From a virus (taxonomy: Duplodnaviria; Caudoviricetes), in IMG/VR virus record IMGVR_UViG_3300049573_000219, positions 64,001-128,000 of that record: a stretch of DNA of 64,000 nt. The stretch is one strand, 5' to 3'. This document shows positions 34,039 through 54,098 of this stretch, piece by piece. Below the pieces are notes generated by a model. That model was not told the DNA's origin. It ran no database searches and saw nothing but the letters and a program-made list of their open reading frames with translations. Numbering within the stretch: the first letter of the stretch is position 1; the number at the start of each line of letters is the position of its first letter. A program made the translations under genes and the position numbers.

Positions 34039-34164
34039 GCGAGTCCTCAGCCCCGTGGAAGTGGAGTCCGCGCTGCACTGTGCTGCACGGCTGGGGCATC
34101 ACAAGGTTACCTAAAACGTTCCCCCGTGAGGAATGCTGTACGCGTCGCAGCAGAAAGGAACGGC

Positions 34165-38596: not shown

Positions 38597-38664
38597 CACC
38601 TCACCGGGACTTTTGACCCCGGATGCTATTACGCTGTGCTCATCGTTGATCAGTGAGGGGGCTC

Positions 38665-39750
38665 ATGTCCAAGGAAACGCTGCGGGAATCCGCAGTCCTC
38701 TCCGCAGACCAGCAGTCCTCCGAGAAGGGCATCTGGCGGGCCCTCCTCATCGCTGCCGACGTCCAGGGGTCCAGCGGGTACTATCCCGCTGATGTGCTCA
38801 AGCGGGACGGCGCTCGCGCTTTTCCTGCCGGAACACACATCTACTTCGACCACCCCTCGGGGACCGAGGAGATGGACCTTCCGGAGCGCAGCGTCCTCAA
38901 AATCGCCGGATACCTTCTCGACGACGCGACCTTCGAAGAGACATCTGAGGGACGCGGGCTCTTCTCCCGGATCCAGTTCACGGAGAAGGCCAAGCCGATC
39001 GCGAAGGAACTGCACAGCGTGATCGGACTTTCGATCCGCGCCGCAGGCCAGATCGAAGAGACCGCTTCGGGGCAGCGTATTGTGCGCAGCATCGAACAGG
39101 GCCTCTCTGTTGACCTCGTCACCCGCGCTGGAGCGGGAGGAAGGCTCGTCACCATGACCGAGTCGGCCACGCCGGAGTCCCCTCCGGCCGAGCAGACCGC
39201 GAGCACCGCCGCCCCGGCCGCGAGTGCAGCCGCGATTCCGTCCACCATCGGCACGGGCGCCCTCCTCAGCGAGGTGGCCGCCCTCAAGGACACCCTCTCC
39301 GACCGCGTCGAGCAGCTTTCCGTCGACGTGGCCCGCATGGCGCAGCAGCTCCAGGAAGCGCGCCGCGAGACGGAGAAGCAGACCCGCGAGAACGCGAAGC
39401 TCCAGGAAGCGATCACCTTCCTGCGCGACCGCGCCGAGACCGCCGACAAGGCGCTCAAGGAGAGCAAGACGACCGGTGACGTCCTCACCGAACTTCTGGA
39501 GGCGAAGCTGCCGCTTCCCTCCATGATCCGCATCGCGCAGTCCTACCGTCCGGACCAGGACCTGCACGAGGCGATCACCCACGAGCGCGAGTACCTGAAG
39601 CAGCTCAGGCGGGAGACCGAGCGCGGCGCGCTCACCGAGAACCGTGACACCTCCGGCCTCGGCCTGACGGAGTCCTCGGTCCTCTCCTCCACGTCGGCCG
39701 ACAGCGATCTCGCCGAGATCCGCAGCCTGCTGGGCGGAGGTTCCTACTGA
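38665..39750 (+). CDS. capsid maturation protease/scaffold fusion
   Basis: GSSGYY, YFDHP, IGLSI, SVDLVTRAGAGG, then coiled coil. Confidence 0.82.
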   Translation: MSKETLRESAVLSADQQSSEKGIWRALLIAADVQGSSGYYPADVLKRDGARAFPAGTHIYFDHPSGTEEMDLPERSVLKIAGYLLDDATFEETSEGRGLFSRIQFTEKAKPIAKELHSVIGLSIRAAGQIEETASGQRIVRSIEQGLSVDLVTRAGAGGRLVTMTESATPESPPAEQTASTAAPAASAAAIPSTIGTGALLSEVAALKDTLSDRVEQLSVDVARMAQQLQEARRETEKQTRENAKLQEAITFLRDRAETADKALKESKTTGDVLTELLEAKLPLPSMIRIAQSYRPDQDLHEAITHEREYLKQLRRETERGALTENRDTSGLGLTESSVLSSTSADSDLAEIRSLLGGGSY

Positions 39751-40235
39751 TGGCCACCAACGAGATCTTCAAGTACGCGGACTGGATCTCCCTTCCGCTG
39801 CCGCTCCGGGGAAGCGACCCGGCGGTCAACGACGACCCGACGCTGGCCGGTGACCCGGTCAAGATCGGCTCCATCGTCGGCTTCGCGCAGGAGGTCGGCG
39901 GCAAGCCGGTCTCCTACACGATCGGCTCGACCACGGTCACGCAGACCAGCAACCGCGCCAACTCCCTGGAGCCCGGCTGGGCCTCGGTCGCCCTCACGGG
40001 CGCCTTCGCCTTCCCGGTCACCGGCTGGGACGCGGAGACCATGGGCTCCGGCACGCCGGTCTTCATCGTTCCGGCGGTCGGCACCACGCGCGCCTCGCTG
40101 ACGACGGCGGCGAACTCCGACCCGTTCGGAGTCATCGTCGGCCAGACCACCGCAGGCGTTCCCATCGTCCGAGTCGTCCAGCCCGTGCCGGGCGACACCA
40201 ACGCCGTGGCCGACAAGACGGCCACCGGTTCCTGA
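39750..40235 (+). CDS. capsid decoration/cement protein (DUF2190-like)
   Basis: GDPVKIGSIVG...GAFAF; between scaffold and MCP; ends TGS. Confidence 0.75.
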   Translation: MATNEIFKYADWISLPLPLRGSDPAVNDDPTLAGDPVKIGSIVGFAQEVGGKPVSYTIGSTTVTQTSNRANSLEPGWASVALTGAFAFPVTGWDAETMGSGTPVFIVPAVGTTRASLTTAANSDPFGVIVGQTTAGVPIVRVVQPVPGDTNAVADKTATGS

Positions 40236-40252
40236 AGGGAGGAATCTGAGAC

Positions 40253-41566
40253 ATGAGCGCGATCACCCTCCTCGACGGAATCAAGGCGACCACGAACTCC
40301 GAGTTCGAGCGCATCGCCGAGGCCCACAGCAAGCGTCGCGTCGCGATCCGCGAGAACGCCGACGCCCGTCTGCTGAAGATGAACAAGGCCGTCGAGTTCC
40401 TGCGCCTCAAGCGCGAGGCGGAGTTCGGCTCGCCGGTCGCGATGGGCCGACTGCGCGAGGCCGTCTCCAGCGGCGACTTCCCGCTGCTGTTCCAGTCGAT
40501 CTCGCAGGCGTCCATGCTCGGCCAGTACGCCGAGCTGCCGCAGCAGTGGCCGACGTTCTCGGTGCGCACCACCGTTCCGGACTTCCGTCCGGCCCGCATG
40601 GTCCGCTGGGACACGGTCGGCGGTCAGTCGCAGACGACCGACTACAACGGCGGCGCCGAGCGTCACGTCCGGGCCCTGCCCCGCATCCCGGAGCTGACCG
40701 AGTACCCGACGTTCAACCTGACCACGGAAGGGATGGACTACTTCGTCAACAAGTACGGAGCCAGGTTCCCCTTCTCGTGGGAGGCGTTCATGAACGACGA
40801 GCTGCGGGTCCTCTCGCAGCTCCCCACGGAGATGGCGCGCTGGGCGCGTGACACCGAGGACGTGCTGACGACCGGCGTTCTGGCCACCTCGACCGGCCCG
40901 AACCCCGACTTCTTCAACACGACCGAGGACTTCGGCGGCCAGGCCCCTGCGGGCAACTACGTCCCCGGCAACCCGCCGCTGACGCTGGACGCCCTGGAGC
41001 ACGCGATCAACTACATCGGGATGCGGCAGGTCAACGGCCGCCAGGTCCGGGTGCAGAACTTCGTGCTCCTGGTGCCGCCCGCCCTCGCGCTCACGGCGCA
41101 GGAGATCGCCCAGGGCACCACGTACCTGCGGGTGCGCTCGCTGCCCGACGGCACGGAGATGCGCCAGAACGTCTCCTCGCCGGTCGCGGGTCGCTTCACG
41201 GTCGTGGAGTCCCCGTGGCTGCCGCTCATCGACACCTCGGCGAACGCCGCGACGACCTGGTACCTGGTTCCGGCCGGTGGCCAGACGGAGCGTGGCCCGG
41301 CCATCGTGACCGCGTTCCTGCGCGGGCACGAGACCCCCGAGGTCCGCGTGATGGGTGACACGGGCCGTGCGCTCGGCGGCGGCGAGATCAACGCCTTCGA
41401 GGGCTCGTTCTCCCACGACGACATCCAGTACCGCGTTCGCTCGATCATCGGCGCCGCCGGTATCGACGCGTCGGCGGTCGCGGTGTCGAACGGCACGGGC
41501 CAGGAGGCGGCGCTGTCCATGGCCTCCATCGGCGGCGGCGCGGTGGCGGGACCCTCGGGTTCCTGA
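40253..41566 (+). CDS. major capsid protein (Mu gpT-like, HK97 fold)
   Basis: VPDFRP, KYGARFPFSWEAFMNDE, LLVPPAL, WYLV; ends SGS. Confidence 0.92.
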   Translation: MSAITLLDGIKATTNSEFERIAEAHSKRRVAIRENADARLLKMNKAVEFLRLKREAEFGSPVAMGRLREAVSSGDFPLLFQSISQASMLGQYAELPQQWPTFSVRTTVPDFRPARMVRWDTVGGQSQTTDYNGGAERHVRALPRIPELTEYPTFNLTTEGMDYFVNKYGARFPFSWEAFMNDELRVLSQLPTEMARWARDTEDVLTTGVLATSTGPNPDFFNTTEDFGGQAPAGNYVPGNPPLTLDALEHAINYIGMRQVNGRQVRVQNFVLLVPPALALTAQEIAQGTTYLRVRSLPDGTEMRQNVSSPVAGRFTVVESPWLPLIDTSANAATTWYLVPAGGQTERGPAIVTAFLRGHETPEVRVMGDTGRALGGGEINAFEGSFSHDDIQYRVRSIIGAAGIDASAVAVSNGTGQEAALSMASIGGGAVAGPSGS

Positions 41567-41644
41567 ACCGGTGAAGCCGGGCGGCGGGTGACCCGGGATT
41601 GATCCCGACCGCCCCCTGCCCGGTCTCCGTTCCTGCCGGGCAGC

Positions 41645-41681
41645 GAGAGGGTCCCCCGATGTGCGACCGGGGGGCCCTCTT
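41645..41681 (+). terminator. terminator-like hairpin after MCP
   Basis: GAGAGGGTCCCCC...GGGGGGCCCTCTT. Confidence 0.6.
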
Positions 41682-41825
41682 CGCGTTGTGCAACCCGGCG
41701 CGCTGGCGCAATGCCTGGTAGGTCAGGTATCTTAGAGGCGTGGCGAGGACTCATCCTCCCCGCCCAAGAAGGAACCGTCCTTGTGCGAGTCCCCGGACTC
41801 CGTCACGGCCACGTTTCTTCTCCTT

Positions 41826-41866
41826 TCCGAAGAGCCCCCGCCCCGGCGGGGGCTTCCGGATTTTCT
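41826..41866. terminator. hairpin with T-tract between convergent blocks
   Basis: AGCCCCCG-loop-CGGGGGCT then TTTT. Confidence 0.55.
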
Positions 41867-41893
41867 GGGCCCATCGACACCGCGCGGCGCAGG

Positions 41894-42121
41894 CTACCCG
41901 TCGCCCTCTTCCTGGAAGTCGATCTCCACCGTGAAGTCGCGGTGCCCGAGGAGCAGGGACAGCATGTCCACGGTCATGTCCTCGGCTTCGGTCCTACTGT
42001 GCCCCTGCGTCACGGCCGGGCCGTCGACAGGGACGTCATGAACGGTGACCGCCCACCACTGGCCACTCTTCACCGCAGTGGCCTTGTACTTCTCCACGAA
42101 TTTCCCTTCAATTCTGATCAT
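41894..42121 (-). CDS. HicB-like protein (N-terminal domain only)
   Basis: YKATAVKSGQWWAVTVHDVP...TQGHSRTEAEDM. Confidence 0.65.
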   Translation of the reverse strand: MIRIEGKFVEKYKATAVKSGQWWAVTVHDVPVDGPAVTQGHSRTEAEDMTVDMLSLLLGHRDFTVEIDFQEEGDG

Positions 42122-42500
42122 AGAAGTGAGCGATTATCTCACTCCAGGCTTTGTCGATCTCTTCTCGCTCTTCTTTCGAGATCGGCCTTGGTCTTCCATA
42201 TCTGTAGCGAGTGCACTTCTGCTCATCGTGCAGAAATCCAGTCTCGCCAAACTCAACACAGCAGGGATTCAGAGGGTCCTGTTCGACACCATCCTTCGCC
42301 CTGCGCCACCACTCAACTTCGCGCCGAATCCGCTCATGCCTTTTCAGGTTTCGGAATCCGGACCACAGGAAGAACATGGCGGAGTAGAGCGCCAGGAACG
42401 ACATGAGCCACAACGAGACGGCACCGAAGAAGACGCCCACGACAACGCAGCCGAGAGCTGAACAGAAGCGCATGAGCGCCTTCTTCTGGTGACCTGTCAC
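42108..42500 (-). CDS. membrane protein (2 TM)
   Basis: Hydrophobic N-terminal half; lower GC. Confidence 0.65.
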   Translation of the reverse strand: MTGHQKKALMRFCSALGCVVVGVFFGAVSLWLMSFLALYSAMFFLWSGFRNLKRHERIRREVEWWRRAKDGVEQDPLNPCCVEFGETGFLHDEQKCTRYRYGRPRPISKEEREEIDKAWSEIIAHFYDQN

Positions 42501-42512
42501 GCGTCACGTCCT

Positions 42513-42863
42513 TCAGTCCTGCGCCGCAGCGCCCTTGCAGGTGACCTCGGAACCGTCGAGCGAGATGCGTTCCGTCAGGGGGAGGTCGATGGGGCTCCGG
42601 TGGCAGCACGGCGTCAGCCCGCTGCCGTCGGGCGGGCAGCCGTGAACGACCGAGTCGTCATCACCGGCCACCAGCTTCTCCAGACGCTGGAACTCGGAGA
42701 CCAGGACGCTGATGACCCTGCCGACCGATTCGAGCGCCGACCTGACGTCGGCGAGAGCCAGTTCGGCCTCCTCCATGGTGCCCTTCTCGTCGACCGGAAG
42801 GGGCACCTCGGCGGTCTCCTCAGAGTCCGTCTCCGACGCTTCGCTCTTTTCCTCTTCGATCAC
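42513..42863 (-). CDS. protein with H-CC-VTC motif
   Basis: VHGCPP...TPCC...EVTC. Confidence 0.7.
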   Translation of the reverse strand: MIEEEKSEASETDSEETAEVPLPVDEKGTMEEAELALADVRSALESVGRVISVLVSEFQRLEKLVAGDDDSVVHGCPPDGSGLTPCCHRSPIDLPLTERISLDGSEVTCKGAAAQD

Positions 42864-43147
42864 AGATCCCACTCCATCGGAAGTTCGGCTCGAAGCCATT
42901 TCTCTGCTGCCTCGTATCCGTCCTCCTCCGGCTGGAAGCTCTCCGGGAAGTACGGGTAGAGTTCGGAAATCCGGTGCCTGTGAATCGCGGCGACGATCTC
43001 GGCATCCAGAAGACGTACCGCCTCGACGAGCTGACGGAAATCCACCAGATCAAGGCCGTTGACGAACAGGGCCGTCCTCAGTTCGGCCAGCCCGCGACGC
43101 GCCTCCGCCAGCTCGTCCGTCTCCTCGATCTCCGGCAGGTCACTCAT
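42860..43147 (-). CDS. hypothetical protein
   Basis: Coupled gene. Confidence 0.7.
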   Translation of the reverse strand: MSDLPEIEETDELAEARRGLAELRTALFVNGLDLVDFRQLVEAVRLLDAEIVAAIHRHRISELYPYFPESFQPEEDGYEAAEKWLRAELPMEWDL

Positions 43148-43412
43148 CCCCCACCTCGATCTCGGAACCCGTCTCGCCGTCGAGCGCGTACTCTCCGCGC
43201 ACTGCCACATCAGCGAGGATGCGGAGATCGCCGAGGGTCAGCGGAGCGTCGGGAACGAAGACGCCAGGCATGGTCAGCACCGCCTCGTCCAGCCGCTTCG
43301 AGACGACCGTCGAATCGGGCTCCTCGCTGAAGACGTCCAGGAGGTAGAGGAGCCGGTCCCGGGTGCAGTCCGGCTTTACGGGCCACTTCCGGTCGAGTTC
43401 ATCGTTGTCCAT
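43140..43412 (-). CDS. hypothetical protein
   Basis: ORF track. Confidence 0.7.
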   Translation of the reverse strand: MDNDELDRKWPVKPDCTRDRLLYLLDVFSEEPDSTVVSKRLDEAVLTMPGVFVPDAPLTLGDLRILADVAVRGEYALDGETGSEIEVGDE

Positions 43413-43659
43413 CAGCCTGCTCCTTCTCCACTCCGCGCCGTATCAGCTCGTTCACGTGGCTTCCGTCGTACGACATCCGGTCGAGACCGGCCACACCCAG
43501 TGAGGTGACCATCCGGTCCACCTCGTGCAGCGCGGCGGCGGCAAGCCGGGGGTTGCTCATCTCGCCCGTGCTGTGCAGCTCCTCGTAGGCCACGGCCAGA
43601 ACCTCGAAGGCGACCTTGAGCTGGCGCACCTCGACCTGAAGTCTCCGCTGGTCATTCAT
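43399..43659 (-). CDS. hypothetical protein
   Basis: MNDQRRLQV... Confidence 0.65.
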   Translation of the reverse strand: MNDQRRLQVEVRQLKVAFEVLAVAYEELHSTGEMSNPRLAAAALHEVDRMVTSLGVAGLDRMSYDGSHVNELIRRGVEKEQADGQR

Positions 43660-43993
43660 CCTCATCACCCGGTTCCGGCATGCGGTATCCCTTGCGGCCG
43701 AGCTGGTACGCGAGGCGGGCGACCGCGTCACTGTCGGCGGGCTCCCCGTCGGCCCACTCGGCGATCACCCTGAGCACTTCCGCAGCGGCCTTGTCGGTGG
43801 GCAGGAACCTCACCCAGTCGATCTTCCGGCCGTTGTGGTCCTTCATGCTGTCGAGGTCGCCAGGGCTGTAGAACCGCCCCTGCATGTTGGCCACCGGCAC
43901 GAACCACGGACCGTTCCCCGGGTCGTAGAAGGCCATCGTGTAGCCGTCGTCGGAGAGGCGGAATTCCCACCCCGTCGTGCGCGGGAGGATCAT
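43652..43993 (-). CDS. hypothetical protein
   Basis: ORF track, TGATG overlap. Confidence 0.7.
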   Translation of the reverse strand: MILPRTTGWEFRLSDDGYTMAFYDPGNGPWFVPVANMQGRFYSPGDLDSMKDHNGRKIDWVRFLPTDKAAAEVLRVIAEWADGEPADSDAVARLAYQLGRKGYRMPEPGDEDE

Positions 43994-44685
43994 CAGCTCA
44001 GCCCCCAGTCCGCGCGGCGCACCCGGAGAAGCCAGCGCTCGACGGCCGCCACGTCGGGATCGCCGATGATGGCGGCCTTCGCCGAGTCGAAGCGGGCCTC
44101 CGCCCGGCGCATGTACTCCTCCGCCCGCGAGGGGTCGTCCGCGATCTGCCTGCCCATCTGGAACACCCAGTCCGGGTCGATCTCGCTGGCGTTGCTGCGC
44201 AGATTCACGATCAGCTCGCCGGAGCGGTACAGGTGGAAACCCTGCTCGACCAGACGCACCAGATGCCTGGCGTGCTTCTCCGTCCTCTTGCGAGTGTCGG
44301 CCGAGAAGCTGCCGTCGCCACGGTTCTTCAGGCGCTCGAACTGGCTGGTGGCGTACCCGAGGTAGGAGTCGCGCACCTTCTTGGCCGACAGGAACGAGCG
44401 GCGCAGCCCGGTCAGCTCGTCACCGAGTGGCGAGATCGCCTCGTACGCGTCGAGCCACAGGAGTTCGGAGACCGACGGGTTGCCGTTCAGGCAGAGCGTG
44501 ACGAACTTCTTCGCCTCGTGCATCGTCGTGTCGGGGTCCTTCGTGACCACCGATTCCTGGATCTTTCCGAGGCCCAGAACCTCGTTGGTGGGTGCCGCGA
44601 AAACACCCATGTAGTCCACGTCGGAACTGTCGTGGTTCAGCCCGTAGGCCGTGGAGCCCACGACGCCCTTCAGGAGCACGTTCAC
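43993..44685 (-). CDS. DNA polymerase beta-superfamily nucleotidyltransferase
   Basis: GSTAYGLN..SDVDYMG, NGNP..ELLW, KHARHLVRL. Confidence 0.88.
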   Translation of the reverse strand: MNVLLKGVVGSTAYGLNHDSSDVDYMGVFAAPTNEVLGLGKIQESVVTKDPDTTMHEAKKFVTLCLNGNPSVSELLWLDAYEAISPLGDELTGLRRSFLSAKKVRDSYLGYATSQFERLKNRGDGSFSADTRKRTEKHARHLVRLVEQGFHLYRSGELIVNLRSNASEIDPDWVFQMGRQIADDPSRAEEYMRRAEARFDSAKAAIIGDPDVAAVERWLLRVRRADWGLS

Positions 44686-44746
44686 TTCCTTCTCCTTTCC
44701 TGTTTCTCTCAGTAGGTGTAGCCGCACTGGGGACCGTACGCGTCGA

Positions 44747-45460
44747 TCACTCCATGGCTTCCTTGCGGAGGCTGTAGGCGACGGACTTGCCGACGCTGTA
44801 CCTCTCCTTGATCTGCTTGATCGAGAGGTTGCCATCGCGGATCTCCTGCACTCGCGCAGCGCGCGACCTTGGGGCGGGCTTGATAAAGCCGGAACCGTCA
44901 GGGGGAGCCGGGAAGCCCATCCGCTCCAGGGTCCAGCCCAGGTCGCCCGTGTCGTACCCGGCTCCGTCGTTCACGTCGGCGATCCACTTCCAGACCGCCT
45001 TCACCAGGTCGTCGCGCTCGGTCTCGGCCTTCATCCGAGCCTGGTGCGGAGTCAGCTTCCCGGGCTCGTCGCGCTGGACGGTGACGATGTAGCGCTCGCG
45101 CGGCTCCTCAGCCAGCTTGACGCCCATCTCCACCTTCGAGCCGACCTTCGGCAGGAGGTCCATGGCGGTCTCCGAGTAGTTCGGCCCGTCCTGGATCAGC
45201 CCACGGCAGACGCCCACCCAGATCGCCACGAAGTCCCGTGCGGGCTCCAGGTCCATCGACGCGCCGTTACGGAAATCGGCGGCCTTGATCTTGATCTGGG
45301 CGACCTGCTCGGCCAGCCACTGCTCCGTCGCCGCGTCCTGGAGGAGATCCGAGACGACCTTCTCCGCCTGGTCCAGGTTCAGGTGCCGGGCGCTCTTCGG
45401 GGACGCCTGCTTCAGCAGCCCCATGAACTCCTCGGCAAGATGCTCCATCGCCTCGTTCAC
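44747..45460 (-). CDS. hypothetical protein with C-terminal HTH-like segment
   Basis: LSIKQIKERYSVGKSVAYSL. Confidence 0.7.
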   Translation of the reverse strand: MNEAMEHLAEEFMGLLKQASPKSARHLNLDQAEKVVSDLLQDAATEQWLAEQVAQIKIKAADFRNGASMDLEPARDFVAIWVGVCRGLIQDGPNYSETAMDLLPKVGSKVEMGVKLAEEPRERYIVTVQRDEPGKLTPHQARMKAETERDDLVKAVWKWIADVNDGAGYDTGDLGWTLERMGFPAPPDGSGFIKPAPRSRAARVQEIRDGNLSIKQIKERYSVGKSVAYSLRKEAME

Positions 45461-45768
45461 TCCGCCACCTTCTCCAGTCTGATCATCGAATCGATTCCGA
45501 CCCTCACGCGGAAATCGTGCGCGCAGGGATCGACTTTCATGAACACGGCCGCCTCGCCGACGCCGAAGTGCGGCGGTTCGGTCCTCATGCCGAGATAGCC
45601 CGCCTCGCCCTTGCAGTCGGGACAGCGGGGCACACGGAGGTCGCACGTGACGATCTCGGGGTGCTCGGTGAGCAGGTCCCCGGAGGGAACGGAGAGGGAC
45701 GGGACGCCGCAGCACTCCGTCACCTCTCCGCCCTCACGGATCTCGTGGATCTTCACGTCACCAGCCAC
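45457..45768 (-). CDS. protein with H-CC-VTC and CxxC motifs
   Basis: IHE...TECC...IVTC...CPDC. Confidence 0.65.
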   Translation of the reverse strand: MAGDVKIHEIREGGEVTECCGVPSLSVPSGDLLTEHPEIVTCDLRVPRCPDCKGEAGYLGMRTEPPHFGVGEAAVFMKVDPCAHDFRVRVGIDSMIRLEKVAE

Positions 45769-46027
45769 CCGGAACGGTGAGCCCCACCGGCCTCTTCTCC
45801 ACCGGGCACTCGTCCTCCGGGCAGGTGTCCTCGTCGCGGACCATGATGAGGTGCCGCAGACTCCTCTCGCCGCTGGCGAACGACACGTCACCGTCGGCGT
45901 CACGGGCTACGATCCAGTCGGTTCCGGCCGCCTCGATCTTCACGCAGTCGTAGTGGTCGCGCCCGAAGGCGCCCTGGGCGAATCCGTGGATGACGTCGCC
46001 GACCTTCAGCGGCTCCGGGCTGCTCAC
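45758..46027 (-). CDS. hypothetical protein
   Basis: LKVGDVIHGF...FGRDHY. Confidence 0.7.
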   Translation of the reverse strand: MSSPEPLKVGDVIHGFAQGAFGRDHYDCVKIEAAGTDWIVARDADGDVSFASGERSLRHLIMVRDEDTCPEDECPVEKRPVGLTVPGGW

Positions 46028-46377
46028 TTCTTCTCCTCGTTGATCTTCCGTGCGATGCCCGCGATCTTCTCGATCAGCGGGTCGCTTTCCCCGAGACGGT
46101 CGATGCTGTACTCGGCGATGTCGAGCAGGTCGACGACGGTCTTCGCGAACGCCGGATCCATCAGCGCGATGAACTCCGCGTCTTCGTCCTGGATCCAGTT
46201 CTCGGAATTCCCGACGCAGTCGCCCATGACCAGTTCGTCGTTCTCGTCGACCACGCCGATCACGAGATCGTCCTCGGGTGTCTTCTCGACGGCGACCGAC
46301 CAGTTCGTTCCGCTGGCCCTCCGGTACGCCCGGCGCAGCTTCAGCCCGGCCCGCCGGATCTCCTCCGCCGCACCCAT
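46024..46377 (-). CDS. Ead/Ea22-like protein
   Basis: DAEFIALMDP..VVDLLD motif. Confidence 0.6.
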   Translation of the reverse strand: MGAAEEIRRAGLKLRRAYRRASGTNWSVAVEKTPEDDLVIGVVDENDELVMGDCVGNSENWIQDEDAEFIALMDPAFAKTVVDLLDIAEYSIDRLGESDPLIEKIAGIARKINEEKK

Positions 46378-46715
46378 CAGTTGTCCAGGTCCGCGATGAT
46401 CCGGAAACCGATCGCGTTGATCGCGGGGATCTCGGCCTGCCGCATGAAGCGCTGGATCTGGCCGCGCCACACCGCCATCTGCTCCTCGGTGAAGTCGGCC
46501 ACGTCGACCGGCTTGGGCTCCAGGGGCTCCGCGCTCTCGCAGTACGTGGTGATGAACAGCTCCTGGTTGCCGTAGCTGCCCGCCTCCAGGTAGCCGAGGT
46601 CGGCGCCGGTCTCCGCGTTGTACTCGCGCAGCGCGCCCTTCTCCTCCAGGAGTTCCTTGAAGTGGCTGCCGACCTTCACGCAGAAGGCCAGGTAACCCCT
46701 CGCGTACTGCCTCAC
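46377..46715 (-). CDS. hypothetical protein
   Basis: Coupled gene. Confidence 0.65.
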   Translation of the reverse strand: MRQYARGYLAFCVKVGSHFKELLEEKGALREYNAETGADLGYLEAGSYGNQELFITTYCESAEPLEPKPVDVADFTEEQMAVWRGQIQRFMRQAEIPAINAIGFRIIADLDN

Positions 46716-47212
46716 GAAATCCACTCCTCTTGGCGGGGTGCGATGTTCAGGACTTGGGCGCTCATGCAGGGCCAGGAGACACGTCGGCCCATGCGGTACA
46801 TCTCGTCGGACCCGGTGTCCTGGTTGCGGACCTTGACCCACTTCCAGTCGACACACCGGGCGCAGACCATCCGGCTCACGTTGGCCCGGTTCGCTCCGTA
46901 CTCGTCGACCGGCCGGTGGCCGAAGTCGTCGTCGGAGACGAGCTGGACCGCGATCTCCTGGAATCGCGGGTAGCAGACGGCGCAGGGCTCCAGGTCGCGG
47001 ATCGCCGCCATGTCGATCGAGATCGCCTCGGCGGCCGGAGGCTTCTCTCCGGCGCAGCCGCAGTACGGGTCGCCGCACCGGCACGCGAAGATCATGTGGC
47101 CAGCCCCACGGGCCGGGCACTCCGGGTCCTCGTGGAAGCGCCGGGCCCTGCGGGACACGTAGACCGTGTTCGACCCCTCCGTGAGGGACATCAGTGCGAC
47201 GGCCAGCTTCAT
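46712..47212 (-). CDS. Cys-rich zinc-binding protein
   Basis: FHEDPEC, CRCGDPYC, CAVC, CARC, WPC. Confidence 0.7.
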   Translation of the reverse strand: MKLAVALMSLTEGSNTVYVSRRARRFHEDPECPARGAGHMIFACRCGDPYCGCAGEKPPAAEAISIDMAAIRDLEPCAVCYPRFQEIAVQLVSDDDFGHRPVDEYGANRANVSRMVCARCVDWKWVKVRNQDTGSDEMYRMGRRVSWPCMSAQVLNIAPRQEEWIS

Positions 47213-47463
47213 TCCGACCCCGCCTCGGCGTCGACCTCGGCCTTCAGCGGGTACCGCTCGAAGGTCATCCACCGGCCCGCCGCCGCGTCCCACTGGAAGG
47301 CGGTGGCCCGCACCACCCGGCTGGAGCCCTCGCGGATCAGGTCGCGCTCACCGTTGATCGCCCGGTGCATCGCCGCCTGGGACCGGAACTTCTTCTCCGG
47401 GAGCGGCGCTGCGGCCGTGAAGAACACGACCTTCCAGGGCTGGCTCGGCTTCTTCGCAGCCAC
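47209..47463 (-). CDS. hypothetical protein
   Basis: ORF track, SD AAGGAG. Confidence 0.7.
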   Translation of the reverse strand: MAAKKPSQPWKVVFFTAAAPLPEKKFRSQAAMHRAINGERDLIREGSSRVVRATAFQWDAAAGRWMTFERYPLKAEVDAEAGSE

Positions 47464-47489
47464 GTCTCTTCTCCTTCTCCGATGCCGTC

Positions 47490-47654
47490 CTACTCGGACG
47501 GCTCCTCACGCATCTTCGCCAGCAGCTCCTCCATCGAGCCGACCGGCGGAGTGCGGCCGTCCCCCATGTGGACGGCCCTCCATGCCCTGTACTGGTCGAG
47601 GGCCCACTGACCGGGGTCAACGCCCTCTGGTGGACCTTCGGTTTCCGTGCACAT
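47490..47654 (-). CDS. small hypothetical protein (54 aa)
   Basis: MCTETEGPPEG...; SD GGAAGGG. Confidence 0.5.
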   Translation of the reverse strand: MCTETEGPPEGVDPGQWALDQYRAWRAVHMGDGRTPPVGSMEELLAKMREEPSE

Positions 47655-47761
47655 GCGCTTCCATCCCTTCCGGTCCGGCGGACCGGACCCGGAGGAGAAT
47701 AGCGCACGATTCGAACAGAACTTTCCTGCGTAACAAGAACGTTCGATGTGACAAGCGCGAC

Positions 47762-48109
47762 CTACTGCGAGTTCGCGACGGATGCCACCGACACCCCGGC
47801 CGGTTCGCTCGGAGCCAGAACGCGCACCAGAACCGGCATCCTGGGTTCGGTGCGGTGGATCGCCGCCCTGGTCTCCAGCAGGTTGTGTCGGCGCAGCGCC
47901 GCCACCTGCTTGATCACGGTGGTGGCCCCGGCACCCCGACCGGCGATGCCCGGATGCAGAGCCATCAGACCCTCAAGGGTCACCGGGAAGTACTCGTTCT
48001 CGGCGTTGGCCTCGTGGGAGGCGGCGTCGAGGATGGCGTAGAGCCGGAAGGCCCCGTGAGGAAGTCCCGGCATGAGTGCCGCTGCGAGGACACGGTCGGT
48101 CGGCTGCAT
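47762..48109 (-). CDS. winged-helix DNA-binding protein
   Basis: LPHGAFRLYAIL...TTVIKQVAALRRHNLL. Confidence 0.65.
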   Translation of the reverse strand: MQPTDRVLAAALMPGLPHGAFRLYAILDAASHEANAENEYFPVTLEGLMALHPGIAGRGAGATTVIKQVAALRRHNLLETRAAIHRTEPRMPVLVRVLAPSEPAGVSVASVANSQ

Positions 48110-48165
48110 GTGCTTCTCCTTTCCTGGAACCACAGTACACCATTTCTGCCCAGTCAGCGCAAGGG

Positions 48166-48537
48166 CTAACGAGAAGGCCCCCTGCGGGTGATCACGTTGG
48201 CGGCGGAGGCCGCGATCTGCTCCCGAGTGACGCCCGGATCGTCACCGCCGTCGTCGAGGCGCACCTGGAGCGACACCTTCGACCACTTCGGCCCCGTCAC
48301 CTCGATCAGACCCTCGGCCTGGAGTTCACGAAGGCTCTCGCGGAGGGAGCCGTCGCTGAGCGGCTTGCCCTTCACGCCGGGAACGGTCCTCTTCAGAACC
48401 GGGACGGAAACCTCCGTCGCCGTTTTCTCGATGCGCCCCTTCAGGAGAACCACCAGAGCGCAGTACAGCCGGAACGAGCTGTGAGTGAGGTTGCGGTTCA
48501 GCACGGCCGCGCAGATGCGGCTTTCCATGGGATCCAT
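48166..48537 (-). CDS. winged-helix DNA-binding protein (paralog)
   Basis: LTHSSFRLYCAL...SLRESLRELQAEGLIEV. Confidence 0.7.
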   Translation of the reverse strand: MDPMESRICAAVLNRNLTHSSFRLYCALVVLLKGRIEKTATEVSVPVLKRTVPGVKGKPLSDGSLRESLRELQAEGLIEVTGPKWSKVSLQVRLDDGGDDPGVTREQIAASAANVITRRGPSR

Positions 48538-48859
48538 GTCTCCTCCTTCCGAGGCGACAGTATCAGAATCCTGATACATCACGTTCCTCCCCAGCCCGAA
48601 GCGACCAGAGGCCGCCTGACGGCCTCAGCCACCCTCCGGCGGCCGTGCACCCGCACCGACCCCTGCGCGAGCCCTGGCGCGGCGCTCAGCCACCCTGGCG
48701 CCGCACCCTGACGACAACCCCAGCCCCCACCCCTTTGAGCGAAGCGAAGTCCGTCCCTCCTCCGCCGCGTGCGGGCGGGCGCAGCCCGGCCGTGAGCGGC
48801 CACGGGGGTACAGGTACATACAAGACGACGGAGGTTTTGTATCTGTTCTTAGGAGAGGG

Positions 48860-49270
48860 TGGTTCCGCAGGTCAGGGCATAAGTGGGGGGTTCGACTCGT
48901 TCGTTTTTCCGCACGAGAATGTCGAAAAAATAGTATGACATCTAGGGCGAATCGGTCATGGATACCCCTCCCTGGTCACAGATGACCAGGGGTGCATGTC
49001 GACATTTCACCCCTTGGCCTCCAGTGAGCATGGGACGCCCGTGACCAGGAAGAATGCCGACCGACAACTTTTGACCCTCGCTCACCAGTGACCATGGGTC
49101 GGATTCCAAGTCTGATTCGATCTTCCAATCGGGCGAATCGGGCAGAGAATCCGCAGGTCAGCGTCTACATACCCACCTGGGGTATCAATTCGGACTTATG
49201 GTGAGTTAATCCTCATTTAAGGCACGACTCGACGCGTCCATGTCAACTTCGCACCATGAATCGGGCATCT
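48860..49270. promoter_or_regulatory. divergent non-coding control region with TGACCWGS and GAATCGG repeats
   Basis: GCAGGTCA at 48867 and 49153; CCTGGTCA-N4-TGACCAGG at 48971-48990; lower GC. Confidence 0.5.
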
Positions 49271-49400
49271 TGGGAGAATGTTCGTACCTCTACACCGGAC
49301 ATCCTGGGAGGAAGTTCGCACCTTCGCGACTCGCTGACCTGCCGCTACGAGTGCGCGGCACCCGTACGATGCTGCTATCACCGACCGGACCCGGAGGCAC

Positions 49401-49892
49401 GTGATGGCAGCAGTAGGAACCTCGGCGGCGCTCGACGTGTACCCGCCCGACTTCGGATCCGTGATCGGTCAGATCCGTGCCCTGGTGCCCGACGTGGAGC
49501 AGGTCGACTACTCCGACAACGGCACCCCCGAGTACATGTTCTCGGACGCCCACCTGCGCGGGCTCTACAACATCGCCATGGGCGAGGGGAGTGCCAAGAT
49601 CTACCGCGCGGCGGCCTCCGCCCTGCGCGCCCTGGCTGTATCCGAGGGCCTGATCCAGAAGGTCATCCGCACCGAAGACCTCCAGACCGACGGCGCCAAG
49701 CTGGCCGGTGCCCTCCTGTCGGGCGCGAAGCAGCTCGAAGACCAGGCGAACGCGGCGGACGAGGACTCGGAGATCATGATGGTCGTCGACTTCCAGCCCG
49801 TTCCGCAGGACGGCTTCCCGCTGACGCTTCACGGCTTCCCGACTGAGTGGACCATCGGGAGTGCGGGGTCCATCACCTCACGCTGGCTCTGA
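49401..49892 (+). CDS. head-to-tail adaptor
   Basis: GQIRALVPD...FSDAHL...AAASALRALA. Confidence 0.75.
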   Translation: MMAAVGTSAALDVYPPDFGSVIGQIRALVPDVEQVDYSDNGTPEYMFSDAHLRGLYNIAMGEGSAKIYRAAASALRALAVSEGLIQKVIRTEDLQTDGAKLAGALLSGAKQLEDQANAADEDSEIMMVVDFQPVPQDGFPLTLHGFPTEWTIGSAGSITSRWL

Positions 49893-49992
49893 AGAGCTGG
49901 CGACCCGATCGGGCGAAAATCCCGAACCATGGATCCTACTAATTAGTAGGCGGGTAAGTTCCGTGGATCTATCGTCAATGGGGACGAGGGCC

Positions 49993-50184
49993 ATGGAAAA
50001 CAAGAAGAAGTACCCACCCCCGATCATCGTCACCGAGGGTGAAGGAAAGATCCACATTTCCTACGACCAGGTCGAAGTGGACTTCCCGGAAGAGGGTCCG
50101 GCACCCGAGGACGCTCCGCCCCTCGCGTGCCGCATCTTCAAGGCGCTGATGAGCGATCTTCCTGGCCGTTTGCGTGCAGAATAG
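49993..50184 (+). CDS. small hypothetical protein
   Basis: MENKKKYPPP...; SD GAGG. Confidence 0.55.
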   Translation: MENKKKYPPPIIVTEGEGKIHISYDQVEVDFPEEGPAPEDAPPLACRIFKALMSDLPGRLRAE

Positions 50185-50189
50185 GCTGC

Positions 50190-50759
50190 ATGGCCTCACT
50201 CAACAGGCGCTCTGCGCTGGATCCGCGCTGGCCGTGGCATCAGCGCTCGGTTCCGATCGGTCACATGAACGCGGCGGTCGAGATCTTCCGGCGGCCGTCG
50301 CGCGGTGGTGAATACGGGTACGACCCGGTTACCGGCGGCCTGACGATTCCCGACGGGTCGGGCGGGGAGAAGTTCCCCGAGTTGATCCTGCTGTACAGGG
50401 GGCCAGGCCGCATCGCCAACAACAAGGACTGGCGTGCCCGCGTGCGCACCCAGCGCGGCGACATGGGTACGGACCACGCGATGCGTGTCCAGGTGCCCAT
50501 CCGGACGTGCCCGCCCGTTCACGCGAACGACCTGGTCAGGGCTGTCGAACCAGATCCGGACGACCCGGATCTCGGGCATCTCGTCCTCGGAGATCCCGAG
50601 CTGACCCATTACATTTTCCACGTACGCAATCCGCTCATGTCGTCCAACGCATGGCTGAGGAACATCCTCTGCGACGTGGACGCGGCGCACCCGCAGACAC
50701 TGCCGCCGCCGTTCTCGATGGAACCCGTCGCCATGAACTACGGCGTGACGGGCCCGTGA
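50190..50759 (+). CDS. head-to-tail stopper (DUF6093-like)
   Basis: MNAAVEIFR, YDPVTG, LLYRGPGRI; synteny. Confidence 0.7.
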   Translation: MASLNRRSALDPRWPWHQRSVPIGHMNAAVEIFRRPSRGGEYGYDPVTGGLTIPDGSGGEKFPELILLYRGPGRIANNKDWRARVRTQRGDMGTDHAMRVQVPIRTCPPVHANDLVRAVEPDPDDPDLGHLVLGDPELTHYIFHVRNPLMSSNAWLRNILCDVDAAHPQTLPPPFSMEPVAMNYGVTGP

Positions 50760-50778
50760 CCAGGGGAGAGGGAAGTAC

Positions 50779-51693
50779 GTGGGCCTGAAGATCGCTCTGA
50801 TCAGCCGAGACAACGGGGTGGGTCTCTCCCTCGACGCGAACCTGCTGAAGGGTATGTTCGAGTCGGCCGGGCACGAAGCGAGGTTCTTCGACTGGCAGGA
50901 GCAGTCGATGCCGCGAGCGGATGTCGCGTTTCATCTGGAACTCGTCAGCAGGAACCTCGCGCAGCACTCCGAGAAGAACATCGCGATCCTGAATCTCGAA
51001 TGGTTCCCGGCGGAGTGGATGAAATACCTTCCGGCGTTCGATCAGATCTGGGCGAAAAGCGGTTACGCACTTCGCTTCTGCCGCAATCGCGGCGGGAAGA
51101 ACGTTCAGTTCACCGGGTTCCTCGGGCTCGATCTCTACGACCCGAAGGTGACGCGTGAGCTGAAGTGCATGCACCTGCGTGGCAAGTCGGGGATGAAGGG
51201 GACCGAGCAGGTCATCGGCGCCTGGCAGAAGGACGACACCCTGCCCCCGCTGACGATCGTCTCGAAGGACCCCATCCCGCTGCCCGCCGGACTGGAGAAG
51301 CGCGTCAAGGTCGTCGTGTCGCCCGACGACACGGAACGCAACCGCCTCATGAACGAGGCGGAGATCCACGTGTGCCCGTCCATCGCCGAAGGGTGGGGGC
51401 ACTACATCACCGAAGCGATGTCGGTGGGTGCCGTGGTGGTGACGACCGACGCGTCACCGATGAACGAGCACATCCGCCCCGAGTGGGGCTACCTGGTCGG
51501 GGTCACCTCGACACGCAACCATCATCAGGCGGTGCTCACCTACACGACTCCGACCCTGATCGCGGAGGCCGTCCGGCGCGCGGCGGCGCTGAGTCCGGAG
51601 AGGCGCCGCGAGGTGGGCATGATGGCCCGGGAGAGATTCCTCAAGAGGAATGCCGAATTCAAGGAAGTAGCACTGAGGTTGGTGGAGCGGTGA
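50779..51693 (+). CDS. glycosyltransferase, GT-B fold (GT4-like)
   Basis: KG..VI.AW, HVCPSIAEGWGHYITEAMSVGAVVVTTD. Confidence 0.88.
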   Translation: MGLKIALISRDNGVGLSLDANLLKGMFESAGHEARFFDWQEQSMPRADVAFHLELVSRNLAQHSEKNIAILNLEWFPAEWMKYLPAFDQIWAKSGYALRFCRNRGGKNVQFTGFLGLDLYDPKVTRELKCMHLRGKSGMKGTEQVIGAWQKDDTLPPLTIVSKDPIPLPAGLEKRVKVVVSPDDTERNRLMNEAEIHVCPSIAEGWGHYITEAMSVGAVVVTTDASPMNEHIRPEWGYLVGVTSTRNHHQAVLTYTTPTLIAEAVRRAAALSPERRREVGMMARERFLKRNAEFKEVALRLVER

Positions 51694-52523
51694 AGCACAC
51701 GGTACTGGTTCCGGCGTGGCGCAGGCCGGACATGCTGCATGCCTGTCTGACCAGGCTGTCGAAGGCGGCCACCGACGACGTGCATGTGATCGTCAGCCTC
51801 GACCGCAAGGGCACTCTGGAGTGCCGTCAGGTCGCCGAGTCCTTCTCGACGGCCTTCGCCGACATCTACCTCCGGGTGATGCACCACCACCAGTTCCACG
51901 GGAACTCCTACAACGTCCTCTCCGGTCTCGGTGACGCCCTGAAGGTGGGCGGCGATCTGATTCACGTGGTGGAGGACGACATCATGGTCTCCCTCGGATA
52001 CTTCGCTTTTCACGAGGAAGCCCACCTCGCCGCCCCGGACGCCTTCGCGGTGAGCGCGTGCAAGAACCAGAACCTCCAGGGTGAGCCACCGGCTGCCGCC
52101 TACCGCCATCCGTCGTACCAGTCTCTCGGCGTGTCGATGCGCCCGGAGAACGTCGAGAAGGCGGTGGCGCACAACAAGCCGGTCTACTACGGCGACATGG
52201 TCAACTACTGCAAGAGGAACTTCCCCGGGAGCCTGATTCCGCCCGGCCATGCAGAGCAAGACGGTCTGATCAACCGGGTCCGCGAGCGGGAGAGGGGTGT
52301 GACGGTCTACCCGGCGCAGCCCCGCGCCTTCCACGCCGGGTTCTACGGGTACAACAGGACCGGGACGAAGCTCGGCGGCTCCATCGAGCGGAGGTCGGCC
52401 AAGATTCTCTCGATGACCAGCGAGGAAATGAACGCCATGGCCGGTCTGATGAAGGACCATGAGGTCATCGACCTGGAGGAGAATCTTCCTGCCGGTCCGG
52501 TGCGAGAGGCGCTTGCCTCGTAG
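51690..52523 (+). CDS. glycosyltransferase, GT-A fold (GT2-like)
   Basis: VLVPAWRRPDML, VSLD, HVVEDD; GTGA overlap. Confidence 0.82.
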   Translation: MKHTVLVPAWRRPDMLHACLTRLSKAATDDVHVIVSLDRKGTLECRQVAESFSTAFADIYLRVMHHHQFHGNSYNVLSGLGDALKVGGDLIHVVEDDIMVSLGYFAFHEEAHLAAPDAFAVSACKNQNLQGEPPAAAYRHPSYQSLGVSMRPENVEKAVAHNKPVYYGDMVNYCKRNFPGSLIPPGHAEQDGLINRVRERERGVTVYPAQPRAFHAGFYGYNRTGTKLGGSIERRSAKILSMTSEEMNAMAGLMKDHEVIDLEENLPAGPVREALAS

Positions 52524-52529
52524 GAGGAG

Positions 52530-52952
52530 GTGGTTCAGATCGCCTACATCGGGATCAAGTACAACTACAGGTTCGGCGGCGCCCAGCGGTACTACGGCGG
52601 CGGCACCCCGAGCGGCGCCTTCGACATCGGCCTCTCCGCGTTCGTGATCGACCACCTGAACAAGTCGCGCCAGACCCTGGTCCTCGACATGTCGAACGCG
52701 CGGCGCCGGGGTGAGGGCCTGGTGAGGGCGAAGTCCCGCGTGGACACCGGGAAGATGAAGTCCTCCGTCACGGGAACCGGCGATTTCGGCACGGACATCC
52801 TGAAGATTTCCTTCGGATGGGAGAGCTTCAATCCGTACTACGCGCCCTTCCAGGAGTTCGGTACGCGTACCGGAATCACCCCGATGATGGCCGTGCTCGA
52901 TGCCTTCAACCAGGTGACGGGCGAACTTCAGGCGAGGATCGGGGGCCGCTGA
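52530..52952 (+). CDS. HK97 gp10-like tail completion protein
   Basis: RVDTGKMKSS...YAPFQEFGT. Confidence 0.8.
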   Translation: MVQIAYIGIKYNYRFGGAQRYYGGGTPSGAFDIGLSAFVIDHLNKSRQTLVLDMSNARRRGEGLVRAKSRVDTGKMKSSVTGTGDFGTDILKISFGWESFNPYYAPFQEFGTRTGITPMMAVLDAFNQVTGELQARIGGR

Positions 52953-53437
52953 TGGTGTCGCTCCTCGACTGGCAGCTCGACATCTACGAACGGCTGGACA
53001 CCGGCCTGCCGAACACGCCGGTCTTCCTGGAGGGTGTGCCCGAGAACACCGACATCGTCAAGGATCCGTCCGGCTTCTACAAGCCGAGCCTGATCCTGTG
53101 GTTCGGCCAGGCGTTCGACCTCTCAGGGTTCGGTGGCCGGATCTCCGTGGCCGATCTATGCGGTCTTTCCGGGGAGGACAAGGGCATCACGAAGCAGGCT
53201 GGCTTCATCGTGGAATCGGTCGCCCCGTCCGGCCTTTCGCTTCTCCAGCTCGCGCAGGCGGCAAGGGATCTCCTCGTCGGGTACGCACCGCTGGAGCAGG
53301 GGGAAATCTCGGAGGCCGGTTCCGGAACAGTCCGTGATCCCTACCCGGTTGGCGTCGGAGATACGTTGCGCTTCTACCTGGCGATCGGATTCCGGGGCAT
53401 CGTCAACGTCAGTCAGCACACGGGCGCCGGTTCCTGA
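52952..53437 (+). CDS. tail terminator
   Basis: Synteny before the major tail gene; ends AGS. Confidence 0.7.
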   Translation: MVSLLDWQLDIYERLDTGLPNTPVFLEGVPENTDIVKDPSGFYKPSLILWFGQAFDLSGFGGRISVADLCGLSGEDKGITKQAGFIVESVAPSGLSLLQLAQAARDLLVGYAPLEQGEISEAGSGTVRDPYPVGVGDTLRFYLAIGFRGIVNVSQHTGAGS

Positions 53438-53531
53438 CTGAATTCGTTCCTGGGTACCGGCGTCCCGGGAATGGCCTTTCGCGGTTAGACTCCGGTCAGG
53501 CACGATCATGCCTTCGGCCGGAGGTACAAGA

Positions 53532-54098
53532 ATGGCAGCAGTCAAGGCTCTCCCGCCGTCGCTCACCATCTGGTGGGTCGACGAGTCGGATCAGACGTCC
53601 CTCGGGTACGAGGGCGTGCACGGCGCTGGGTTCGCGGACATCGACCACCCGACCGCCGCCGAGATCAACGCGGGCATCAACATCAGTTGTGCCCTGACGA
53701 CGGACCTCACGCTCGGCTGGACCGACCGTGACACCGACGACACGCGTGGCCTCTGCGACGACTCGAACGTGGCGACCCCGACCGCGAAGAACTACGAAGG
53801 TCAGCTCAACATCTTCCTGGACCGGGACCCGAACAAGCTCGACCCGTCGGTCTACAACGACGTGATGCGCCTGTTCAAGAAGCCGCTCCGCAGCGGTTTC
53901 CTGGTCCAGCGGATCTCGAAGCACCCGGTCCGCGACCCGCTCGCGGTCGACGACGACTGGGTGACGATCTTCAAGTTCCTCTCGGGTGACCCGAACGTCA
54001 TCAACGACGCGACGGCGCCGCTCCAGCTCCAGCCCACCTTCTACGCGCAGGGCCAGTCCTCGGACGGCCTGGTGCAGGTGGGCAGCACCGGAAGCTGA
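53532..54098 (+). CDS. major tail (tube) protein
   Basis: PTAAEINAGINISCAL, LCD, GFLVQR; ends TGS. Confidence 0.88.
   Translation: MAAVKALPPSLTIWWVDESDQTSLGYEGVHGAGFADIDHPTAAEINAGINISCALTTDLTLGWTDRDTDDTRGLCDDSNVATPTAKNYEGQLNIFLDRDPNKLDPSVYNDVMRLFKKPLRSGFLVQRISKHPVRDPLAVDDDWVTIFKFLSGDPNVINDATAPLQLQPTFYAQGQSSDGLVQVGSTGS

Follow-up and report, generated by a model that had tools for sequence, protein, structure and literature searches.

A probable phage-encoded virion O-glycosylation system in a large Streptomyces siphophage genome

The sequence analyzed here is a 64,000-nucleotide stretch (the window) covering bases 64001-128000 of a virus record (IMGVR_UViG_3300049573_000219) that is 187,033 bp long and terminally repeated. 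A megablast search with its head-tail region (39750-54098) matched five Streptomyces phages (Frankenweenie, with 83% identity, Satis, Quantum, EhyElimayoE and Kradal), the last four of which are 186-200 kb in size. The source is a large siphophage genome of the Satis/Frankenweenie group, to which Satis, Frankenweenie and other isolated phages on record belong, and it is not a prophage; heads of prolate shape and genomes larger than 180 kb were described when Satis was announced. Within the head-tail region two adjacent genes encode glycosyltransferases (GTs), one of the GT-B fold and one of the GT-A fold, and four structural proteins end in Gly-Ser (Table 1). A first-pass annotation had read this combination as a virion O-glycosylation system encoded by the phage, and on the evidence presented below such a system is considered probable, the C-terminal ends being its likely acceptors.

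All four Gly-Ser ends are present as they were listed, with the last codons GGT TCC in the decoration, capsid and terminator-like genes and GGA AGC in the tube gene. The coordinates first given for the GT genes and the ends also stand, but the most likely starts are 52952, and not 52817, for the terminator-like gene (161 aa, the length found in relatives) and 53532 for the tube gene (188 aa). The labels "decoration" and "tail terminator" derive from gene position and from the curated annotation of homologues: the decoration gene follows that of the protease/scaffold protein and precedes that of the capsid protein, its homologues carry the name head fiber in Frankenweenie and Commonplace and head decoration in Amigo, and the homologue of the terminator-like protein in Commonplace (27% identity) is annotated as tail terminator. 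Profile searches of Pfam and the PDB with the terminator-like protein gave no match. A fifth Gly-Ser end was found on a 156-aa protein encoded just beyond the window; searches of Pfam and PHROG with this protein and with the minor tail proteins gave no match, and those of the ESM Atlas gave sub-threshold matches only. Judging from the sequences, the decoration, major capsid, terminator-like and tail tube proteins are predicted to be glycan acceptors, and the 156-aa protein may be a fifth.

Table 1. Genes of the head-tail region and other features discussed in the text. Positions are those of the window unless marked as genome positions; GC3, G+C content at third codon positions; ORF, open reading frame.
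Feature	Position	Strand	C-terminus	Ends in relatives	Basis or remarks
Thermolysin-type M4 metallopeptidase	28936-29835	+			Peptidase_M4_C 1.7e-31; 5′ of packaging genes
Methyltransf_24-type O-methyltransferase	31476-32036	+			Pfam Methyltransf_24 2e-12; longest ORF from 31398
Large terminase	34126-36534	+			802 aa; first in + strand order, ahead of portal
Portal	36857-38596	+			
Protease/scaffold	38653-39750	+			
Head decoration/head fibre protein, 161 aa	39750-40235	+	KTATGS	ATGS, ASGS (xTGS/xSGS, 7 lineages)	Position and annotated homologues
Major capsid protein, HK97 type, 437 aa	40253-41566	+	GPSGS	PSGS, PAGS, KSGS, PKSS	Pfam Phage_capsid_4 1.8e-33
Small leftward genes, ~6.7-kb block	41890-48600	-			Between capsid gene and adaptor gene
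RlaP-type nucleotidyltransferase	43993-44835	-			PF10127 5.8e-22
Adaptor-like protein	49401-49892	+			
DUF6093 head-tail joining (stopper-like) protein	50190-50759	+	GVTGP (untagged)		Pfam DUF6093 1.1e-19
GT-B, GT4-like, 304 aa	50779-51693	+			Pfam Glycos_transf_1 3.5e-10
GT-A, GnT-I/POMGnT1-like, 277 aa, GTG start	51690-52523	+			Pfam Glyco_tranf_2_3 4.3e-6
gp10-like tail completion/Neck1 protein	52530-52952	+	RIGGR (untagged)		PHROG 5, 1.6e-5
Tail-terminator-like protein, 161 aa	52952-53437	+	TGAGS	GAGS, GTGS, DVGS, EVGS, EPGS, AGNS	Directly 5′ of tube gene
Major tail (tube) protein, 188 aa	53532-54098	+	GSTGS	STGS, STAS, ALAS	Pfam Phage_TTP_16 1.1e-25
Chaperones, then tape measure protein	3′ of tube gene	+			
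156-aa protein	Genome 129570-130040 (~1.6 kb past window end)	+	EGYGS	GYGS, GEGS, LEGS, LDGS, RDGS, TPGS (six lineages, identity 33-63%)	Last gene of rightward tail block; GC3 0.96

In a genome of high G+C content, C-termini may often contain Gly and Ser, and four or five Gly-Ser ends might then arise by chance. When genes were called across all 187 kb by a crude method based on GC3, Ser was last in 10.7% of the proteins and Gly stood at position -2 in 13.8%, and chance cases of the dipeptide do exist, namely two non-structural ORFs and the capsid protein of Arthrobacter phage Molivia. Gly-Ser ends are found in ~1.2-1.5% of the proteins genome-wide, however, and by this gene call they occur on 5 of ~16 virion-module proteins as against 3 of ~243 others (Fisher p = 2e-5); with an expectation of ~1.5%, the binomial chance of at least five such ends in 16 is about 1e-6 to 3e-6. 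Conservation of the ends across lineages is moreover confined to virion-module proteins, as described next, and coincidence is therefore regarded as highly improbable.

Members of the five families were compared among Frankenweenie, Satis and another five to six genomes of this group, which are of metagenomic origin and 180-260 kb in size. Every family keeps the terminal Ser without exception, across 6-8 lineages and at identities down to 33%, while Gly at position -2 is usual and dispensable, as the ends STAS, AGNS, ALAS and PKSS of relatives indicate. The Gly-Ser acceptor tag first proposed for four proteins is accordingly better described as a conserved terminal Ser, usually preceded by Gly, on five. 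Eight codon pairs encode the end among these genomes (GGT TCC, GGA TCC, GGC TCC, GGT TCG, GGA TCG, GGA AGC, GCG AGC and AGC TCC) and the neighbouring residues drift, which points to selection on the protein, as the two codon pairs of this genome had already suggested at first pass. A nucleotide-level signal (GGTTCCTGA) was considered as the cause of the shared end and rejected, because relatives use seven other codon pairs. The two non-structural ORFs that end in Gly-Ser served as a control and lose that end in relatives (VDG, FED, VFR, FEG and YGL for one; AGA, WSG and LGV for the other), so it is in virion-module proteins only that the ends are kept by selection. Alignments with the nearest homologues from phages without the GTs, those of Arthrobacter phages Amigo and Molivia and Curtobacterium phage Commonplace (24-43% identity), place the ends on C-terminal extensions: the capsid protein has ~21 extra residues, rich in Gly, Ala and Ser, that are absent from all three phages, and there are 7 extra residues in the decoration protein, 4-8 in the tube protein and a few in the terminator-like protein.

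The GT pair lies within the late structural operon, where neighbouring stops and starts overlap or nearly abut: a Shine-Dalgarno-like run precedes the GT-B gene, the GT-B stop and the GT-A start overlap as GTGA (the translational coupling noted at first pass), and TGATG is common to the gp10-like and terminator-like genes at their stop/start junction. The assignment of both genes as GTs between the stopper and gp10-like genes was borne out by Pfam matches, structure models and fold searches. Homologues of the DUF6093 and gp10-like genes adjoin each other in Amigo, Molivia, Commonplace and contigs G001 and G002, all of which lack the pair; therefore, the pair is an insertion in the head-tail joining operon.

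The GT-B model, built from 35 homologues, has a predicted local distance difference test score (pLDDT) of 95.6, and its best Foldseek matches are PimA (2gej), BshA, MshA, a methylmannose-polysaccharide mannosyltransferase and GtfA (5e9t), with TM-scores of 0.72-0.78 for the model against PimA and BshA. Both glutamates of the EX7E motif (E204 and E212) are invariant in the 35 homologues; a two-Rossmann GT-B fold with EX7E in the C-terminal domain, which is the CAZy GT4 criterion tested, was thus found in this protein. The Pfam match of GT-A is right at the cut-off, but its model, built from 61 homologues, has a pLDDT of 96.6, and two of its homologues carry a precomputed match to PF03071. Foldseek ranked GnT-I (1foa, 7e-12) and POMGnT1 (5ggi) best, in an E-value range of 7e-12 to 3e-10, with TM-scores of just 0.51-0.58 and identities of 17-20%. 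An EDD motif is present, of which E95 and D97 are invariant in the 61 homologues; GnT-I, too, has an EDD variant of the DxD motif and, like POMGnT1, extends mannose on glycoproteins. On the strength of the model, GT-A may be said to resemble family GT13 (GnT-I/POMGnT1), and membership of that family would go beyond the evidence. Sequence searches of the PDB with GT-A, the decoration protein and the terminator-like protein were uninformative. A second GT-A paralogue, 33-36% identical, is found far from the structural module in several sister genomes (L113, L115, L123 and L125) and is absent from the genome of the window.

Some of these structural neighbours act on protein. GtfA and GtfB (5e9t, 4pqg) are fold neighbours of GT-B, GtfA being the GT4 enzyme that starts cytoplasmic protein O-glycosylation as the cytoplasmic O-linked N-acetylglucosamine (O-GlcNAc) transferase of serine-rich repeat adhesins, and POMGnT1 (GT13), the neighbour of GT-A, extends O-linked mannose on protein. 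The likeness has its limits: the GTs of the window share only 13-20% identity with GtfA/GtfB and GnT-I/POMGnT1, the acceptors of those enzymes are internal Ser/Thr repeats or N-glycan and O-mannose cores as opposed to a C-terminal Gly-Ser, and GT-B, at 304 aa, is shorter than the GT4 enzymes GtfA and GtfB. Other neighbours of the pair are enzymes of lipid, thiol-precursor and polysaccharide synthesis (PimA, BshA, MshA, TarS and SpsA). GT4 and GT-A folds being generic, the GTs, together with the methyltransferase considered next, might instead act on phage DNA, on a host cell-wall polymer or lipid or on a small molecule, in which case the Gly-Ser ends would be unrelated flexible tails that serve assembly or stability. 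Insertion of a translationally coupled pair into the late head-tail operon argues against this alternative, to which the distribution of the GTs is also relevant.

A methyltransferase gene some distance upstream appears to belong with the pair. Its product is an S-adenosylmethionine-dependent O-methyltransferase of the Methyltransf_24/cation-dependent type. The Methyltransf_24 match, noted at first pass, was reproduced and is accompanied by a second Pfam match (Methyltransf_3, 5e-5); the alignment of homologues favours a start at 31476 over 31398. A scan with the GT-A alignment yielded 74 viral loci, ~45 of which also have a homologue of GT-B upstream, in the same orientation, and in 12 other viral contigs the GT-B and GT-A genes flank a homologue of the window methyltransferase (28-37% identity, E-values from 1e-12 to 1e-29). 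The distant methyltransferase of the window is tied to the GT pair by these homologues inside the cassette, which supports the earlier suggestion that it belongs to the system. It is predicted to methylate the glycan. The arrangement has parallels in other phages, where the same domain occurs: gp108 of mycobacteriophage Che8 is a fusion of a GT2 enzyme with a methyltransferase, and gp35 of Corndog is a TylF-like methyltransferase encoded beside the GTs of that phage. The three-gene GT-B/Methyltransf_24/GT-A cassette was observed at IMG/VR loci L096-L101, L106, L109-L111 and L131. One lineage (L095-L103) has it in the head module, flanked by head morphogenesis genes on one side and the gene of the major head protein on the other; there, the PHROG 779 protein encoded after the capsid gene ends in GGS or LGS, and the PHROG 810 protein encoded after the adaptor gene ends in GGS or GVS, so that proteins of further, unrelated families share the end.

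A third GT gene lies outside the window, among replication genes (genome 139472-140179, minus strand). It has no Pfam match, but its product aligns over the full length with Che8 gp109 at 2e-4, with shared motifs, and in sister phages the profile matches to the Che8 gp109/Corndog gp37 family range from 1e-61 to 5e-73. The gene is kept in Satis, Frankenweenie and two metagenomic sisters; no gp109-type gene was found in the 15 other relatives searched for it, namely Amigo, Molivia, Commonplace and 12 more (seven rated 90-100% complete). Its placement among replication genes is more in keeping with the alternative that the substrate is something other than the virion. The similarity of a 234-aa gene beside it to Corndog gp38 is too weak for a call (40 residues, 7e-5 pairwise), and none was found to Che8 gp110.

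If the ends are acceptors for these enzymes, one would expect them to accompany the GT genes. Among 62 loci from an IMG/VR scan with a tube-protein alignment, all eight that have homologues of the GT pair encode a tube protein ending in Ser and a terminator-like protein ending in Gly-Ser. Among the remaining loci (~52 without the pair) a tube protein ending in Ser was seen only at L025, L026 and L040, and two of these three, the sister contigs, carry GTs of other arrangement: L026 has a gene for a 626-aa GT4 and GT-A fusion, divergent from the portal gene, with capsid and tube proteins ending in NTDS and VVAS, and L025 has a GT-A gene (Glyco_transf_7C) 5′ of the portal gene, with ends GLDS (capsid) and VDAS (tube). 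Neither GT2 nor GT4 enzymes were found in Amigo, Molivia, Commonplace or contigs G003-G005, the relatives searched for these families. The co-occurrence of the ends with the pair that the first-pass annotation asked for is found at every locus with the pair; the Molivia capsid protein is an exception to the absence of such ends from relatives without GTs.

The same pairing recurs in other phage groups. In mycobacteriophages such as Che8 the glycans are reportedly O-linked to the C-terminal ends of the capsid and tube subunits, and putative GTs are said to be encoded by certain phages of Gordonia and Streptomyces. A glycosyltransferase of the Che8 gp109 type is encoded by all five of the phages compared, the capsid and tube families of which mostly differ from those of the window: capsid and tube proteins end in NKTGS and YSDGS in Che8, confirming the parallel drawn at first pass, in LVGS and KGDS in Corndog, in PQGS and FGGS in Marvin, in ETAS and EAGS in Brujita and in APSF and VGLS in Baka. 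When these five, the phage of the window and two sister contigs are taken together, the terminal Ser is present in 15 of 16 capsid and tube proteins of GT-bearing phages, against a background near 10%. According to three papers (PMC12363180, PMC11600133 and PMC11256854) that cite Freeman et al. 2023 (Cell Host Microbe 31:1216), virion proteins of Che8, Corndog and Myrna are glycosylated, the GTs of Che8 and Corndog modify capsid and tail tube proteins, and Che8 gp110 and Corndog gp38 are essential.

The window phage resembles Che8 in that both encode GTs and a Methyltransf_24/TylF-type methyltransferase, both have capsid and tail tube proteins that end in Gly-Ser, and a gp109-family GT-A is present in its genome outside the window. 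It differs from Che8 in the families of its pair (GT4 and GnT-I-like), in its methyltransferase, which is not fused to GT2 but encoded by a gene of its own at a distance of 19 kb, in the site of the pair, which is the head-tail module and not the right end of the genome, and in having five tagged proteins rather than two. In placement it resembles Corndog (cluster O), where the cassette gp35-gp38 lies inside the structural module between portal and protease, and to Baka (cluster J), where gp11-gp20 lie inside the structural module between capsid and connector genes, although in those phages the enzymes are GT2, GT25 and a TylF methyltransferase, and the reported substrates are capsid and tube only. 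The simplest account is a virion O-glycosylation system that would work like that of Che8, with enzymes mostly of other families and a wider predicted set of acceptors.

Several observations weigh against virion glycosylation as the function of these genes, and all support for it is comparative. The GT-B and GT-A of the window have no specific similarity to Che8 gp108-gp110 or Corndog gp36 by BLASTP or hhalign, but a gp109-type gene is present elsewhere in the genome. Comparison of the two GTs and the methyltransferase with the Che8 and Corndog enzymes matched a generic DxD region only. No gene of the GT25/gp110 type, the type reported essential in Che8 and Corndog, was found in the genome of the window phage. 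The 156-aa protein is a putative virion component only, and the C-terminus of the terminator-like protein is only presumed to be exposed. The Molivia capsid protein (L007, 5595-6710) ends in STGS although no glycosyltransferase was detected, and the Baka capsid protein lacks a terminal Ser. GT-A relatives at 25-38% identity have no excess of Gly-Ser ends nearby, a count over the 74 GT-A loci that is no more than indicative, as the crude GC3-based caller missed some overlapping genes. On the tube-protein tree the Ser-ended, GT-bearing sequences form one clade; the association within this lineage is consequently a single evolutionary event, and independent support must come from elsewhere. Finally, of ~272 records in cluster F1 whose capsid protein shares 95% identity or more with that of Che8, only ~33 encode a gp109 with at least 80% identity; the KTGS and SDGS ends are unchanged in Llij and DotProduct, the latter of which gave no gp109-type match. 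Tag and enzyme are thus separable among very close relatives, and since close relatives of Che8 keep Gly-Ser ends without a gp109-type gene, the occurrence of such ends in relatives without GTs, which the first-pass annotation had taken as a ground for abandoning its proposal, counts for less than it had stated. In the more distant Brevibacterium phage AGM3, with 52% capsid identity and no glycosyltransferase, the ends are TAV and AGV.

The lack of a local Gly-Ser excess near distant GT-A relatives and the persistence of the ends in F1 phages without a gp109-type gene both favour some other substrate for the GTs and methyltransferase. On that supposition, however, the convergence of five unrelated proteins on one dipeptide, kept while the surrounding sequence drifts, goes unexplained; GT presence tracks the Ser ends in this lineage, if by a single event, and the pairing recurs in several further groups of phages, whose capsid and tube proteins are of unrelated families. 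Action on DNA, the host envelope or a small molecule is therefore judged unlikely. The same F1 phages would also suit a tag that is conserved at the protein level and read by a GT-independent process, whether by a protease, chaperone or assembly factor or through phosphorylation or acylation of the Ser. A thermolysin-type M4 peptidase is encoded in the window and a kinase-annotated gene in the cassette of Baka, but it is the glycosyltransferases that co-vary with the tag and no candidate reader does, and the capsid and tube proteins of Che8 and Corndog are reported, in the papers that cite Freeman et al. 2023, to be modified by phage GTs. A tag for such a process seems quite improbable.

Glycosylation of the virion by the phage's own enzymes being the preferred reading, the following course of events may be proposed. 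Late in infection, expression of the head-tail operon would supply two soluble GTs together with the structural proteins: GT-B, a GT4-type retaining enzyme, and GT-A, a GnT-I/POMGnT1-like inverting enzyme with an EDD metal site. Both would act in the cytoplasm on nucleotide sugars, possibly with the third, Che8 gp109-type GT-A, and we infer that an O-linked glycan would be built on the terminal or a near-terminal Ser of the short flexible C-terminal extensions. Five proteins of the late operon (decoration, capsid, terminator-like, tube and 156-aa) would be the acceptors. As to which enzyme starts the chain and with which sugars, a guess from the models is that GT4 might add a hexose, to which the GnT-I-like enzyme might transfer an N-acetylhexosamine. 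The Methyltransf_24 O-methyltransferase may then methylate sugars of the glycan. Head and tail would as a result be coated with glycan, in the way that has been reported for Che8 and Corndog. A broader reading, put forward tentatively and with somewhat more doubt than assurance, is that a C-terminal Ser, typically in Gly-Ser, on a short flexible extension is a portable glyco-tag across actinobacteriophages, read by unrelated sets of enzymes, GT2 and GT25 in Che8 and Corndog or GT4 and a GnT-I-like GT-A in the window phage, and that in the Satis/Frankenweenie group it has spread from the capsid and tube to the decoration, terminator-like and 156-aa proteins.

Other features of the window may be noted. 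The minus-strand block that splits the structural operon varies in content between the window phage, Satis and Frankenweenie, and here includes the gene of an RlaP-type nucleotidyltransferase. The large terminase ORF is longer than that of Amigo (~500 aa); the middle of it resembles an inserted element of the intein type, in a stretch ending ...THNS, and a Pfam search with the ORF as a whole gave no match at E < 0.01. The M4 metallopeptidase is an enzyme that phages do not usually carry.

The first report of glycosylated phage particles dates from 2023 and covered a few mycobacteriophages only, in which the glycans are described as a shield against antibodies. If the prediction made here is true, the phenomenon reaches large Streptomyces phages, with different enzyme families. 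As these are soil phages, the coat cannot concern antibodies, and its natural role comes into question; stability, adhesion to mycelium or soil and protection from proteases are candidates. A terminal Ser, usually in Gly-Ser, in a phage that encodes GTs would then be a simple sequence rule for recognizing glycosylated virion proteins from a genome alone, and the widespread GT-B/methyltransferase/GT-A cassette, found in dozens of uncultured viral contigs, would be a candidate virion-modifying module. If the tag is in addition portable, the virion of this phage would be almost fully coated with glycan, and any virion protein could be marked for glycosylation by adding the tag to it.

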